In this document: positions 27,707-32,775 of the stretch, one piece after another
Layout of the letters: every line of letters starts with the position of its first letter
How positions within the stretch are numbered: the first letter of the stretch is position 1
NCBI RefSeq assembly: GCF_022846255.1
Contig: NZ_AP025682.1
Source of the DNA: Escherichia coli
GTDB taxonomy: Bacteria > Pseudomonadota > Gammaproteobacteria > Enterobacterales > Enterobacteriaceae
DNA: 64,000 bases
Reading direction: 5' to 3' (one strand)
Made by a program: the position numbers and the translations under genes
Notes under the pieces: model-generated
Database searches by the model: none
The model's input: the letters and a program-made list of their open reading frames with translations, nothing else
Told to the model about the DNA's origin: nothing

Positions 27707-29374
27707 GTGGCTCAATTCGTTTATACCATGCATCGTGTCGGCAAAGTTGTTCCGCCGAAACGTCATATTTTGAAAAACATCTCTCTGAGTTTCTTCCCTG
27801 GGGCAAAAATTGGTGTCCTGGGTCTGAACGGCGCGGGTAAGTCCACCCTGCTGCGCATTATGGCGGGCATTGATAAAGACATCGAAGGCGAAGCGCGTCC
27901 GCAACCGGATATCAAGATTGGTTATCTGCCGCAGGAACCGCAGCTGAACCCGGAACACACCGTGCGTGAGTCCATTGAAGAAGCGGTTTCTGAAGTGGTT
28001 AACGCCCTGAAACGCCTGGATGAAGTGTATGCGCTGTACGCCGATCCGGATGCCGATTTTGACAAGCTGGCCGCTGAACAAGGCCGTCTGGAAGAGATCA
28101 TTCAGGCTCACGACGGTCACAACCTGAACGTTCAGCTGGAGCGTGCGGCGGATGCGCTGCGTCTGCCGGACTGGGACGCGAAAATCGCTAACCTCTCCGG
28201 TGGTGAGCGTCGTCGCGTGGCGTTGTGCCGCCTGCTGCTGGAAAAACCAGACATGCTGCTGCTCGACGAACCGACCAACCACCTGGATGCCGAATCCGTG
28301 GCCTGGCTGGAACGCTTCCTGCACGACTTCGAAGGCACCGTTGTGGCGATTACCCACGACCGTTACTTCCTTGATAACGTTGCAGGCTGGATCCTCGAAC
28401 TGGACCGCGGTGAAGGTATTCCGTGGGAAGGTAACTACTCCTCCTGGCTGGAGCAGAAAGATCAACGTCTGGCGCAGGAAGCTTCACAAGAAGCTGCGCG
28501 TCGTAAGTCGATTGAGAAAGAGCTGGAGTGGGTACGTCAGGGAACTAAAGGCCGCCAGTCGAAAGGTAAAGCACGTCTGGCGCGTTTTGAAGAGCTGAAC
28601 AGCACCGAATATCAGAAACGTAACGAAACCAACGAACTGTTTATTCCACCTGGACCGCGTCTTGGCGATAAAGTGCTGGAAGTCAGCAACCTGCGTAAAT
28701 CCTATGGTGATCGTCTGCTGATTGACTCCCTGAGCTTCTCGATCCCGAAAGGAGCGATCGTCGGGATCATCGGTCCGAACGGTGCGGGTAAATCGACACT
28801 GTTCCGTATGATCTCTGGTCAGGAACAGCCGGACAGCGGCACCATCACTTTGGGTGAAACGGTGAAACTGGCGTCGGTTGATCAGTTCCGTGACTCAATG
28901 GATAACAGCAAAACCGTTTGGGAAGAAGTTTCCGGCGGGCTGGATATCATGAAGATCGGCAACACCGAGATGCCAAGCCGCGCCTACGTTGGCCGCTTTA
29001 ACTTTAAAGGGGTTGATCAGGGTAAACGCGTTGGCGAACTCTCCGGCGGTGAGCGCGGTCGTCTGCATCTGGCGAAGCTGCTGCAGGTTGGCGGCAACAT
29101 GCTGCTGCTCGACGAACCAACCAACGACCTGGATATCGAAACCCTGCGCGCACTGGAAAACGCCCTGCTGGAGTTCCCGGGCTGCGCGATGGTTATCTCG
29201 CACGACCGTTGGTTCCTCGACCGTATCGCCACCCACATTCTGGATTACCAGGATGAAGGTAAAGTTGAGTTCTTCGAAGGTAACTTTACCGAGTACGAAG
29301 AGTACAAGAAACGCACGCTGGGCGCAGACGCGCTGGAGCCGAAGCGTATCAAGTACAAGCGTATTGCGAAGTAA
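27707..29374 (+). CDS. ettA: ABC-F energy-dependent translational throttle EttA (YjjK)
   Basis: 555 aa with two ABC ATPase cassettes (Walker A GLNGAGKST and GPNGAGKST; LSGGE signatures). Confidence 0.97.
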   Translation: MAQFVYTMHRVGKVVPPKRHILKNISLSFFPGAKIGVLGLNGAGKSTLLRIMAGIDKDIEGEARPQPDIKIGYLPQEPQLNPEHTVRESIEEAVSEVVNALKRLDEVYALYADPDADFDKLAAEQGRLEEIIQAHDGHNLNVQLERAADALRLPDWDAKIANLSGGERRRVALCRLLLEKPDMLLLDEPTNHLDAESVAWLERFLHDFEGTVVAITHDRYFLDNVAGWILELDRGEGIPWEGNYSSWLEQKDQRLAQEASQEAARRKSIEKELEWVRQGTKGRQSKGKARLARFEELNSTEYQKRNETNELFIPPGPRLGDKVLEVSNLRKSYGDRLLIDSLSFSIPKGAIVGIIGPNGAGKSTLFRMISGQEQPDSGTITLGETVKLASVDQFRDSMDNSKTVWEEVSGGLDIMKIGNTEMPSRAYVGRFNFKGVDQGKRVGELSGGERGRLHLAKLLQVGGNMLLLDEPTNDLDIETLRALENALLEFPGCAMVISHDRWFLDRIATHILDYQDEGKVEFFEGNFTEYEEYKKRTLGADALEPKRIKYKRIAK

Positions 29375-29384
29375 TGCGTAAAAT

Positions 29385-29416
29385 GCCGGATGCGGCGCAC
29401 CAGCATCGCATCCGGT
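29385..29416. repeat. REP-like palindromic hairpin downstream of ettA
   Basis: gccggatgcg...cgcatccggt: 9-bp inverted repeat with the GCCGGATGCGGCG signature of REP elements. Probable ettA terminator and left edge of the toxin-antitoxin cassette. Confidence 0.5.
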
Positions 29417-29429
29417 ATTAGTTAAATGA

Positions 29430-29714
29430 TTAATGGGAAGCAAGTTCCCGGAAAAAGGCAGGATTTTCTTTAATTGTGGCAAGTACTTTTGCAGCCAATC
29501 CCGTAGGATTTCTTCGCTTCGATTCCCAGCTTTTAATGGTATCCACACTGGTTCCCAGAGCTTTTGCCATCTCACTTTGAGAAACGTTGAGTTGCTCACG
29601 AATAGCTTTAACATCCGCAATTTCGTAGCGGGTCACCCGTGCAGGTTCTTTTAAACCTTGTTTAATCTCGACAGCCTCTTCCAGAGAGGTTTTCAACTCA
29701 TCAAAAAAACTCAT
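29430..29714 (-). CDS. HigA2-like antitoxin (XRE-family HTH, addiction-module antidote)
   Basis: 94 aa MSFFDELKTSLEEAVEI...LNVSQSEMAKALGTSVDTIKSWESKRRNPTGLAAKVLATIKENPAFF: C-terminal XRE helix-turn-helix; start 1 nt after the toxin stop. Confidence 0.8.
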   Translation of the reverse strand: MSFFDELKTSLEEAVEIKQGLKEPARVTRYEIADVKAIREQLNVSQSEMAKALGTSVDTIKSWESKRRNPTGLAAKVLATIKENPAFFRELASH

Positions 29715-29715
29715 T

Positions 29716-30048
29716 TTATATCTCGCCTTTGAGCAGTTTCGTCAACTTCTTTAGTTGAGCTTTTTCCGTATCTGTCAGACTATCTTTGGCATTTATCGGA
29801 TAGGCCATAATCAAATAAATAATCTCTTCCGTCGCCAGAAAGTAAATTATTCTGACACTGCCACTTTTTCCCTGTGAACCCGCAGCCATTCGGACTTTAC
29901 GCAATCCACCAGTCTGCTGAATGAGATCACCTTTATCGGGAGTTCCGATGAGTTCTTTTTGTAATTCCTTTAATTCATCATCGGTTGCAATCTGCTTGAT
30001 CTGACGCGTAAACATTGGCGTCTCTATAAATATTTTCGCCTTACCCAT
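29716..30048 (-). CDS. HigB2/Gp49-like toxin of the RelE superfamily (type II TA toxin)
   Basis: 110 aa with the motif QTGGLRKVRMAAGSQGKSGSVRIIYF, typical of HigB-2 / addiction-module killer proteins; strong RBS GGAGGGGG; toxin-first gene order. Confidence 0.8.
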   Translation of the reverse strand: MGKAKIFIETPMFTRQIKQIATDDELKELQKELIGTPDKGDLIQQTGGLRKVRMAAGSQGKSGSVRIIYFLATEEIIYLIMAYPINAKDSLTDTEKAQLKKLTKLLKGEI

Positions 30049-30063
30049 TCCCCCTCCCTGTCA

Positions 30064-30100
30064 GGTACATTGTACACCTAAATGGAGTACTAAGTACACT
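30064..30100 (-). promoter_or_regulatory. Putative promoter/operator of the toxin-antitoxin cassette
   Basis: Two near-palindromic GTACnnnGTAC elements (ggtacattgtacacc and agtactaagtacact) 20-50 bp upstream of the toxin start. Confidence 0.4.
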
Positions 30101-30139
30101 TTTAAATCAGTAATCCCACTCAACATCTTATAAAGATGA

Positions 30140-31372
30140 TTATCTTTGCTCCCCCATCATCTCCCGCACCAGCTCCACGCAGCGCAGGAAACGGCTGTCG
30201 TAATCGTCCTCTTCAACCCGCACGAATTCGATATTGTTCTCTTCCAGCATCTCCACCAGCAAGTTCTGGAACTCTTTGCGATCCACCGAACTGCCGAGGC
30301 TGCGTAAACCATCCGCCACCCACGGCGTGTTGTTCTCCAGCAGGATCACCAGATCGAAACGGTATTCATCAATCAACGCCTGCACGAACGGATGCTCACG
30401 CCCTTCGTACTTTTTGCAGAACGCCTGGGTAGTGACAAAATCGGTGTCGATAAACGCCACTTTATTGGCATATTTCACTGCAAAATCAATATATTGCGCG
30501 TGTCCCAGCGCGATTTTATCGTAGTCGGAATACTGCAACGCAATCTCATCACCGCCAAGGTGTGAAAAGACATAATCGCGACCATATTCCCATGCACTGG
30601 TAGTGTTGAAGATATTGGCAAGTTTGTTTACCAGGGTGGATTTACCGCTCGACTCGCCGCCAAGGATCGCCACGGTACGCACAAAGAACGGCTTAACTTC
30701 CGTAGGAATATATTCCCAGTAGCGGAACGGGTTTTCGCGGATCTGCGCACCGCTGATACTCATAAAGGTACGCTTCGGATCGACCAGCACCGTCTCGATC
30801 CCCAGATGTTCCATATACTGCGGCGCATCGGCTTCTTCCGAGGTGTAGATCAGGTCCGGCTGAATGCCTTTTTCGGCCATAAACTTTTTGATGCCGTTGC
30901 TCCACACATCCCAGCCATGTGGATACGGTTCCATGCCCTCTTCGTTAAAAGCATGAATGCGGATATTTTTTTGATACTTAAAGGTCTGCAATAACCAGCG
31001 CAGACGATCCGGCACGGTTGGCTGCTGCGACATGGCGCTGTCTTCGAACAATGCGCGGTCGCGGGTATCGTCAAAACCCATAATGATATGCAGCTCGTCA
31101 ACCTGGCTACAGGCGCGCTGGATAAGGTAGATATGTCCAGTATGCAGCGGGTAAAACTTACCGAATACGACACCGATCGTTTTCTTCTGCCGGGGAAATT
31201 CAAGTCCCAAATAACGGTGCAATGCCTCCAGCTTTTGTGCGCTGGGGCTTTTAATTTTGGCATTCAGTAACTGGCTTAAATACCCTTTGGTCATACCGCT
31301 GGCATCAGCTACCTGCTGTAGCGTGCAGCCCTGTTGCTTGATGGCAGTTTTCAGGTAATCAAATGACGACAT
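30140..31372 (-). CDS. nadR: Trifunctional NAD biosynthesis/regulator protein NadR
   Basis: 410 aa starting MSSFDYLKTAIKQQGCTLQQVA (HTH, NMN adenylyltransferase and ribosylnicotinamide kinase regions). Confidence 0.95.
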   Translation of the reverse strand: MSSFDYLKTAIKQQGCTLQQVADASGMTKGYLSQLLNAKIKSPSAQKLEALHRYLGLEFPRQKKTIGVVFGKFYPLHTGHIYLIQRACSQVDELHIIMGFDDTRDRALFEDSAMSQQPTVPDRLRWLLQTFKYQKNIRIHAFNEEGMEPYPHGWDVWSNGIKKFMAEKGIQPDLIYTSEEADAPQYMEHLGIETVLVDPKRTFMSISGAQIRENPFRYWEYIPTEVKPFFVRTVAILGGESSGKSTLVNKLANIFNTTSAWEYGRDYVFSHLGGDEIALQYSDYDKIALGHAQYIDFAVKYANKVAFIDTDFVTTQAFCKKYEGREHPFVQALIDEYRFDLVILLENNTPWVADGLRSLGSSVDRKEFQNLLVEMLEENNIEFVRVEEDDYDSRFLRCVELVREMMGEQR

Positions 31373-31392
31373 ATCTCCCTCCGTATCTCTCA

Positions 31393-32775
31393 TTATAAGT
31401 CGTCGAACACGCTAAGCGCGTCGGAGAGTTTTTTAACGCCAAAAATCTGCATCCCTTCCGGCGCTTTTTTCGGCACGTTAGCTGCCGGAACAATTGCCCG
31501 GCGAAAACCGTGTTTCGCCGCTTCTGAGATTCGTTCCTGGCCGCTAGGCACCGGGCGGATCTCCCCTGCCAGCCCGACTTCACCAAACACCACCAGATCC
31601 TGCGGTAGCGGTCTGTCACGCAGGCTGGAAACCATCGCCAGCAGTAACGCTAAATCGGCACTGGTTTCCGTCACCTTCACGCCACCGACCACGTTAACAA
31701 ACACATCCTGATCGGCCATTTGTAGACCACCGTGACGGTGAAGCACCGCCAGCAGGATTGCCAGACGGTTTTGCTCCAGCCCGACTGCCACGCGGCGTGG
31801 ATTCGCCATCATCGAGTGATCGACGAGCGCCTGAATCTCCACCAGCAGCGGACGCGTTCCTTCCCACACTACCATCACTGAGCTACCGGAGGTCACTTCA
31901 TCGCCGCGACTTAAGAAAATTGCCGAAGGGTTGCTGACTTCACGCAGCCCCTGCTCGGTCATTGCGAAGACACCCAGCTCATTCACCGCGCCGAAGCGGT
32001 TTTTATGGCTGCGTAAGGTGCGAAAACGTGAGTCGGCATCACCATCCAAAAGCACCGAACAGTCGATACAGTGTTCCAGCACTTTAGGGCCAGCCAGCGA
32101 GCCATCTTTGGTTACGTGCCCGACCATGACAATCGCCACACCGCGCGTTTTGGCGAAGCGCGTCAGATAAGCCGCCGTTTCACGCACCTGTGCCACGCTG
32201 CCAGGCGATGATTGTACATCCGCCATATGCATCACCTGGATGGAGTCAATTACCATCAGCTTCGGTTGCTCTTCTTCGGCAATCAGGCAGATCTGCTCGA
32301 TGCTGGTTTCCGACAGCATATTAAGATTGTCAGTCGGCAGGCCAAGGCGATGAGCGCGCATTGCCACCTGTTGCAGCGACTCTTCGCCGGTGACATACAG
32401 CGTTTTCATCTGCTGCGCCAGTTTGCACAGCGTTTGCAGCAACAGCGTGGATTTCCCCGCACCAGGGTTACCGCCAATCAGAATGGCGCTTCCCGGCACC
32501 ACGCCGCCGCCTAATACGCGGTCGAACTCTTTAAATCCGGTGGAAAAACGCGGCAGCTCTTCAAGGCTGATGTCGGAAAGTTTCTGGACTTTTGCCACTC
32601 CGGCGCTACCGGCATAGCCACTGAGACGCTCGTTACGCGCCACCGTTGGCGACGCTGCAAGACGCACCTCGGTGATGGTGTTCCAGGCATGACAGGCACT
32701 GCACTGCCCCTGCCAGCGCGGATAATCGGCCCCGCATTCATTACAAACAAAGGCGCGTTTTGGAGCTTTTGCCAC
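31393..32775 (-). CDS. radA: DNA repair protein RadA (Sms)
   Basis: 460 aa with N-terminal C4 zinc finger, Walker A GGNPGAGKST and Lon-like C-terminus; probable GTG start. Confidence 0.95.
   Translation of the reverse strand: MAKAPKRAFVCNECGADYPRWQGQCSACHAWNTITEVRLAASPTVARNERLSGYAGSAGVAKVQKLSDISLEELPRFSTGFKEFDRVLGGGVVPGSAILIGGNPGAGKSTLLLQTLCKLAQQMKTLYVTGEESLQQVAMRAHRLGLPTDNLNMLSETSIEQICLIAEEEQPKLMVIDSIQVMHMADVQSSPGSVAQVRETAAYLTRFAKTRGVAIVMVGHVTKDGSLAGPKVLEHCIDCSVLLDGDADSRFRTLRSHKNRFGAVNELGVFAMTEQGLREVSNPSAIFLSRGDEVTSGSSVMVVWEGTRPLLVEIQALVDHSMMANPRRVAVGLEQNRLAILLAVLHRHGGLQMADQDVFVNVVGGVKVTETSADLALLLAMVSSLRDRPLPQDLVVFGEVGLAGEIRPVPSGQERISEAAKHGFRRAIVPAANVPKKAPEGMQIFGVKKLSDALSVFDDL

Follow-up and report, generated by a model that had tools for sequence, protein, structure and literature searches.

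The nearest characterised homologue of the antitoxin described here, and its closest solved relative (PDB 8a0w, 8a0x), is HigA2 of Vibrio cholerae (VcHigA2). Its footprint covers the inverted repeat TGTACGC-N5-GCGTACA, reaching from past the -35 element across the -10 element, and it represses a reporter in vivo; the protein binds as a dimer via residues R68, E71, N72 and R77 of helix alpha-3, and the toxin-antitoxin complex binds DNA too (PMC11006873). The HigA2 antitoxin of Acinetobacter baumannii (higBA2, pAB120) represses its own promoter and the complex does so more strongly, the toxin being a co-repressor, in a study that defined no operator sequence (PMC5906591). In the E. coli mqsRA promoter, MqsA binds two AACCT-N3-AGGTT palindromes (PMC4894380), and the yefM-yoeB operator contains paired TGTACA motifs spaced 12 bp centre to centre (PMC1802561). 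No study of the present locus turned up in literature searches on the NadS antitoxin, on a toxin-antitoxin system with nadR and yjjK, and on the RefSeq accessions of both proteins. Nor was a description of an RRTGTAC-N3-GTACAYY operator motif for the subfamily found in the searchable papers.

The window, that is the whole stretch of DNA that was analysed, is 64 kb of E. coli chromosome. Along it lie ettA (27707-29374, plus strand), the antitoxin and toxin genes (minus strand), a 91-bp spacer, nadR (30140-31393) and radA. The features of the locus are as follows:

29430..29714, minus strand: antitoxin gene nadS, 94 aa, presumed repressor (NadS NCBIfam match, HigA2-like)
29716..30048, minus strand: toxin gene, 110 aa, HigB2-like (PF06296 and HigB-2 matches)
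30053..30057, minus strand: toxin Shine-Dalgarno sequence GGAGG, read from the sequence
30062..30078, minus strand: predicted proximal operator site, core GTACAATGTAC (30075..30065), extended GGTGTACAATGTACCTG, an exact GTACNNNGTAC match
30069..30074, minus strand: predicted -10 element TACAAT, 5/6 matches, within the proximal palindrome (left half plus spacer)
30084..30100, minus strand: predicted distal operator site, core GTACTTAGTAC (30097..30087), extended AGTGTACTTAGTACTCC, an exact GTACNNNGTAC match
30093..30098, minus strand: predicted weak -35 element TGTACT, 3/6 matches, 18-nt spacer, in the left half of the distal palindrome

The toxin gene comes first on the minus strand (30048..29716, with its ATG at 30048) and is followed after 1 nt by the antitoxin gene (29714..29430); in RefSeq the pair carries the annotation RelE/ParE family toxin and nadS. 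The toxin matches Pfam RelE PF06296 (E 1.4e-8, 35.4 bits, cut-off 27) and the V. cholerae HigB-2 chains in the PDB (E 6e-16), similarities from which it is predicted to be a HigB2-like ribosome-dependent mRNase of PF06296. The antitoxin matches NCBIfam NadS over its full length (E 1.2e-54, 182.6 bits, cut-off 60) and PDB HigA-2 across residues 33-91 (E 2e-6). Its AlphaFold model (mean pLDDT 81) has 8a0x, the HigB2-HigA2-operator complex, as best structural match, with further matches to 5jaa and 5j9i, and the C-terminal domain of the model superposes on that of HigA2 at 1.0-1.3 A. The gene pair is a toxin-first type II toxin-antitoxin (TA) operon of the HigB2/HigA2 kind, in which the antitoxin combines a presumed N-terminal toxin-binding region with a C-terminal HTH-XRE DNA-binding domain like that of HigA2. 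Between ettA and the end of nadS (window 29380-29430) there is a REP-like sequence (GCCGGATGCGGCG...CATCCGGT).

A first-pass annotation of this DNA had pointed to two palindromes at 30060-30105, about 22 bp apart and upstream of the toxin ribosome-binding site, as a candidate autoregulatory operator. Both are where it placed them: GTACATTGTAC occupies 30065-30075 and GTACTAAGTAC 30087-30097 (plus strand), with 22 bp from start to start; this puts the distal site about two turns of the helix further from the toxin gene than the proximal one, which itself stops 7 nt before the GGAGG sequence (30057-30053). Each consists of two 4-nt arms in perfect inverted repeat around a 3-nt spacer and, because GTAC is self-complementary, doubles as a direct repeat. 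They stand directly upstream of the first gene of the operon, 17 and 39 nt from the toxin ATG, and both fall within the 91-bp gap, 42-75 nt past the nadR stop. The pattern GTACNNNGTAC matches nowhere else in the 64 kb window, giving two matches against 0.32 expected, and the family consensus described below (RRTGTACNNNGTACAYY) matches 30084-30100 with one mismatch and 30062-30078 with two, no further place in the 64 kb window being found with fewer than three. That the two palindromes occur here by chance gains some room from shuffling, since 4 of 100 shuffles of the window contained at least two GTACNNNGTAC matches anywhere, but in the real sequence both matches lie within 33 bp of a single 91-bp spacer. 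Moreover, GTAC is rarer in the window than its composition predicts (150 seen vs 249 expected), and the nadR-toxin spacer is the single place in the window that holds four GTAC within 33 bp.

The locus resembles VcHigBA2 in toxin family, antitoxin fold, toxin-first order and a GTAC-containing inverted repeat that would lie over the -10 element. The V. cholerae operator, however, is a single 19-bp site with GTAC cores 13 bp apart, whereas two 17-bp sites with cores 7 bp apart are found here, and R68, E71, N72 and R77 of VcHigA2 align with D, K, S and R, so that three of the four base-contacting residues differ. Since both the contact residues and the half-site spacing differ, the VcHigA2 precedent supports the mechanism and not the exact contacts, and the GTAC common to both operators may be read differently from VcHigA2. 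With an N3 spacer and D/K/S/R residues the sites are not of the VcHigA2 operator type, which has a 7-bp half-site and N5; repeats of that type were found only with xxxTLxNWE helices. The A. baumannii higBA2 pair shares a PF06296 toxin and a NadS-annotated antitoxin (about 51% and 38% identity), but its helix, SARTLQNWE, is of the V. cholerae type and its upstream repeat is TACGC-N5-(A/G)CGTA, not GTAC-N3-GTAC. With mqsRA the locus shares the toxin-first order, two N3 palindromes in the promoter (here a predicted one) and a homologous HTH-XRE domain (TIGR03830, E 1.2e-9; 3fmy, rmsd 1.5 A). The two differ in that MqsA binds zinc through an N-terminal domain and NadS is free of cysteine, and in that MqsR belongs to another toxin family; the half-site being TGTAC and not AACCT, and NadS lacking cysteine, an MqsA-type operator was rejected. 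The likeness to yefM-yoeB is one of sequence only, consisting of paired GTAC-core palindromes over a TA promoter (here a predicted one), in a system whose toxin is again a co-repressor. There the antitoxin has the unrelated Phd/YefM fold, the order is antitoxin-first and the spacing is 12 bp. A YefM-YoeB operator was rejected as well: the spacer has one TGTACA (30071-30076), the spacing is 22 bp and the locus encodes no YefM-type antitoxin.

Relatives were collected by a scan that kept one genome per species, which gave 80 loci (81 with the window) from Enterobacterales, Halomonas, Aeromonas, Shewanella-like and other Gammaproteobacteria; their toxins are 67-85% identical and each is followed by a NadS antitoxin. 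In 76 of the 80 relatives (77/81 loci with the window) the 200 nt that precede the toxin start contain GTACNNNGTAC, and the remaining 242 kb of the 81 loci held only four matches. This recurrence at homologous loci refutes a chance origin, whose probability we regard as negligible. The upstream flanks themselves are unalignable: they group into 55 clusters that are unrelated to each other, and their median pairwise identity, 27%, is that of random sequence. The motif has therefore been retained while its surroundings diverged. The resulting consensus is a symmetric 17-bp palindrome, RRTGTAC-N3-GTACAYY, with tAT as spacer and aaGGTGTAC-tAT-GTACaCc as its fuller form. Its flanks mirror each other (R at -2/-3 vs Y at +12/+13) and the right half, GTACAYY, varies no more than the left. 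The arrangement seen in the window, two perfect cores 19-22 bp apart, recurs across 12/81 loci, 5 more have a degenerate second core, and most relatives have a single site.

Within E. coli, the spacer and intact pair are present in 673 of 5426 complete genomes. Strains MCJCHV-1, 83972 and NRG 857C carry the locus. Five spacer alleles, up to ~8% divergent, have about 9 variable columns, none of which is inside either site; were variation uniform, the chance of this would be about 0.03, on a small sample. In one strain (Z1323HEC0355) an insertion sequence (integrase core domain protein, 1506-2606 of its locus, L106) separates the operator from nadR, its insertion point, at about window position 30103, lying a short way upstream of the distal palindrome.

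The same type of pair, with a single GTACtatGTAC site, was also seen on small mobilisable ColE1-like plasmids (4-7 kb) of Klebsiella, Salmonella, Enterobacter and Pectobacterium, where it adjoins mbeD and rep genes. The toxins of these plasmid pairs (L087, L008, L009, L015-L022, H44-H50) are ~80% and the antitoxins 80-90% identical, and 138 plasmid records fall in this band. In Vibrio parahaemolyticus (L110), GTACtatGTAC precedes a toxin gene that is truncated. A 59-63 kb viral (prophage-like) contig from IMG/VR also carries a TA pair of the NadS type, together with a perfect GGTGTACNATGTACACC site (L088, 5184-5849; L094, 1318-1983). In the reverse direction, an exact search of viral contigs with GGTGTACNATGTACACC returned 14 matches, of which 2, belonging to one element, adjoin a TA pair, the others being inside genes or terminator-like hairpins; within the viral contig collection, the presence of the system cannot be read off from this 17-mer alone. 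A search of viral contigs for distant antitoxin relatives yielded 3 loci only.

We then asked what the motif is tied to. In three Enterobacter/Lelliottia chromosomes (L029, L032, L035) no copy precedes the toxin gene; the motif is found in a 65-nt spacer between toxin and antitoxin, 23 nt ahead of the ATG of the antitoxin gene. Across 79 distinct antitoxins the recognition helix, GTSxDTIKSWExKRRNPTGLAAK, hardly varies, matching the invariance of the core. Moreover, among distant pairs on plasmids, for which plasmid records were compared by helix class, different palindromes occupy the same upstream position when the helix is of another class:

helix SVDTIKSWE or SVDLVRSWE (Shewanella, K. pneumoniae IncF): palindrome GTAC-N3-GTAC
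helix SASLLQSWE (Y. ruckeri): palindrome TTCGTAC-N3-GTACGAA, two copies
helix SPSLVEAWE or SSSLVQSWE (Salmonella plasmids): palindrome TC[TC]TAC-N3-GTA[AG]GA, then TATAAT
helix xxxTLxNWE, the VcHigA2 type (Acinetobacter, Salmonella pRM11060-1, Croceicoccus): TACGC-N5-GCGTA type

At positions 58, 59, 61 and 62, where NadS has D, T, K and S, the antitoxins of the Salmonella plasmids have P, S, E and A. Because the motif relocates with the antitoxin, the helix is nearly invariant where the core is, and helix and palindrome covary, the motif is tied to NadS and not to the toxin gene or the neighbourhood. A separate feature of the Enterobacter/Lelliottia loci is CTGTATATAAATACAG, a perfect LexA/SOS-box-type CTGT-N8-ACAG sequence ~95 nt upstream of the toxin gene (box about 1395-1412, GTAC-N3-GTAC motif 1853-1863). 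Its presence, together with the relocated motif, suggests that in this variant the toxin may be SOS-controlled, while the antitoxin would have its own autoregulated promoter.

A host regulator unrelated to the TA pair might bind the palindromes instead. YefM-YoeB is one candidate, given the TGTACA at 30071-30076 and the paired TGTACA motifs of YefM operators (PMC1802561). Those are 12 bp apart centre to centre vs 22 bp here, and only one hexamer in the spacer is TGTACA. NadR is another, as the sites follow so shortly after its gene. The NadR box, however, is TGTTTA-N6-TAAACA and bears no resemblance to the GTAC-N3-GTAC motif. Against any such regulator, the motif travels with the TA pair to plasmids, prophage-like contigs and many unrelated chromosomal locations, in hosts that range from Enterobacterales to Halomonas and Shewanella; NadR is excluded as the binder because the motif accompanies the pair onto plasmids and unrelated chromosomal sites. 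We consider binding by a host regulator highly improbable.

A consensus sigma-70 scan of 29300-30400 called no promoter in the spacer (30049-30139), because the inferred -35 matches at only 3/6 positions. On the other hand, the proximal site contains TACAAT, and a -35 signal emerges in the relatives. Among those with a single site, agreement with TTGACA upstream of TACnAT, the hexamer within the site, shows a sharp maximum at a spacing of 17 bp (mean 2.98/6 vs ~1.5 at other offsets; at least 4/6 in 24 of 65 loci), and in relatives with two sites TGTACA or TGTACT stands 16-18 nt from the -10. The last T of the spacer is kept in 70/86 sites, beyond what palindromy requires, which is the behaviour expected at position -7 in a -10 hexamer. 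From the position of the -10 only, transcription is predicted to start at about 30061-30062, giving a leader of ~13 nt. On this assignment the proximal site would cover the -10 and the distal site the -35.

These same data could be taken to mean that the conserved block is just the -10 region with adjoining promoter sequence, kept for RNA polymerase with no repressor involved: the left half reads TACnAT, a -35-like element lies 17 bp upstream, and the last spacer T is conserved beyond palindromy. A -10 hexamer, however, needs neither an equally invariant right half nor mirrored R/Y flanks, and distal second copies exist where no -10 is expected. Furthermore, subfamilies with other helices keep an N3 palindrome yet place a separate TATAAT after it. 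A promoter element alone is thus very unlikely to account for the motif. An element acting at the RNA level, be it a hairpin in the toxin mRNA leader or a nadR terminator, would fit the 4-bp stem that each palindrome could form and the position of the region directly after nadR. The minus-strand fold of 30040-30150 (-21.7 kcal/mol) is, however, no more stable than shuffles would suggest (z = -0.23), there is no Rfam match, and no minus-strand terminator-like site was found in the spacer. If TACAAT is the -10, both palindromes would also be upstream of the transcript start, and we hold an RNA element to be extremely improbable.

Taken together, the comparative evidence (footprint, overlap with the predicted -10, relocation with the antitoxin, helix covariation and the HigA2 precedent) supports the autoregulatory reading of the first-pass annotation. 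The palindromes are very probably tandem operators for NadS dimers over the higB2-nadS promoter, through which the operon would repress itself. In this mechanism, NadS dimers, encoded two genes downstream, would bind both GTAC-N3-GTAC palindromes. The proximal site would hold the -10 (TACAAT), and the distal site, two helical turns upstream, would lie over the -35 position. Bound antitoxin, and probably the toxin-antitoxin complex too, would exclude RNA polymerase, and the operon would thereby repress its own transcription. Cores of 4 bp placed 7 bp apart are an unusual target for an HTH dimer, unless the bases that it reads are the RRT/AYY on either flank. By analogy with the dimer geometry of HigA2, the recognition helices would be placed on the outer GTGTA of each half-site, which would explain the conservation of the RRT/AYY flanks.

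K-12 lineages (L001, E. coli TG1/K-12, 1501-1647 vs window 29601-29744 and 29745-30139) have lost toxin, operator and HTH domain by deletion. What remains is ~29 nt from the 3' end of the toxin gene plus codons 1-38 of nadS, fused 33 nt past the nadR stop, and a REP-like GCCGGATGCGGCG sequence takes the place of the 3' part of nadS. A PIRT-seq study reports expression of the K-12 nadS remnant (PMC12350097); with promoter and operator deleted, this implies read-through from nadR.

That the tandem sites do more than simple autorepression, as a nadR roadblock, by cooperative ratio sensing or through other NadS targets, seems rather unlikely. NadS bound at the sites could form a roadblock and so shield the toxin gene from transcription running on out of nadR, an idea that arises because the sites follow the nadR stop by 42-75 nt with no terminator between and because the K-12 remnant is expressed. 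Two sites could also let the toxin:antitoxin ratio set repression by cooperative bridging; the single-site V. cholerae system lacks this arrangement. Lastly, NadS, in the manner of MqsA, could control further genes that have RRTGTAC-N3-GTACAYY.

Autorepression is ordinary for gene pairs of this kind, and our understanding of type II TA regulation is unchanged by the present locus. What the analysis provides is a defined, testable operator consensus, RRTGTAC-N3-GTACAYY, for NadS-annotated antitoxins, which are widespread on small mobilisable plasmids and on the chromosomes of Gammaproteobacteria. Moreover, the covariation of recognition helix and half-site listed above could guide studies of specificity in HigA2-type repressors.
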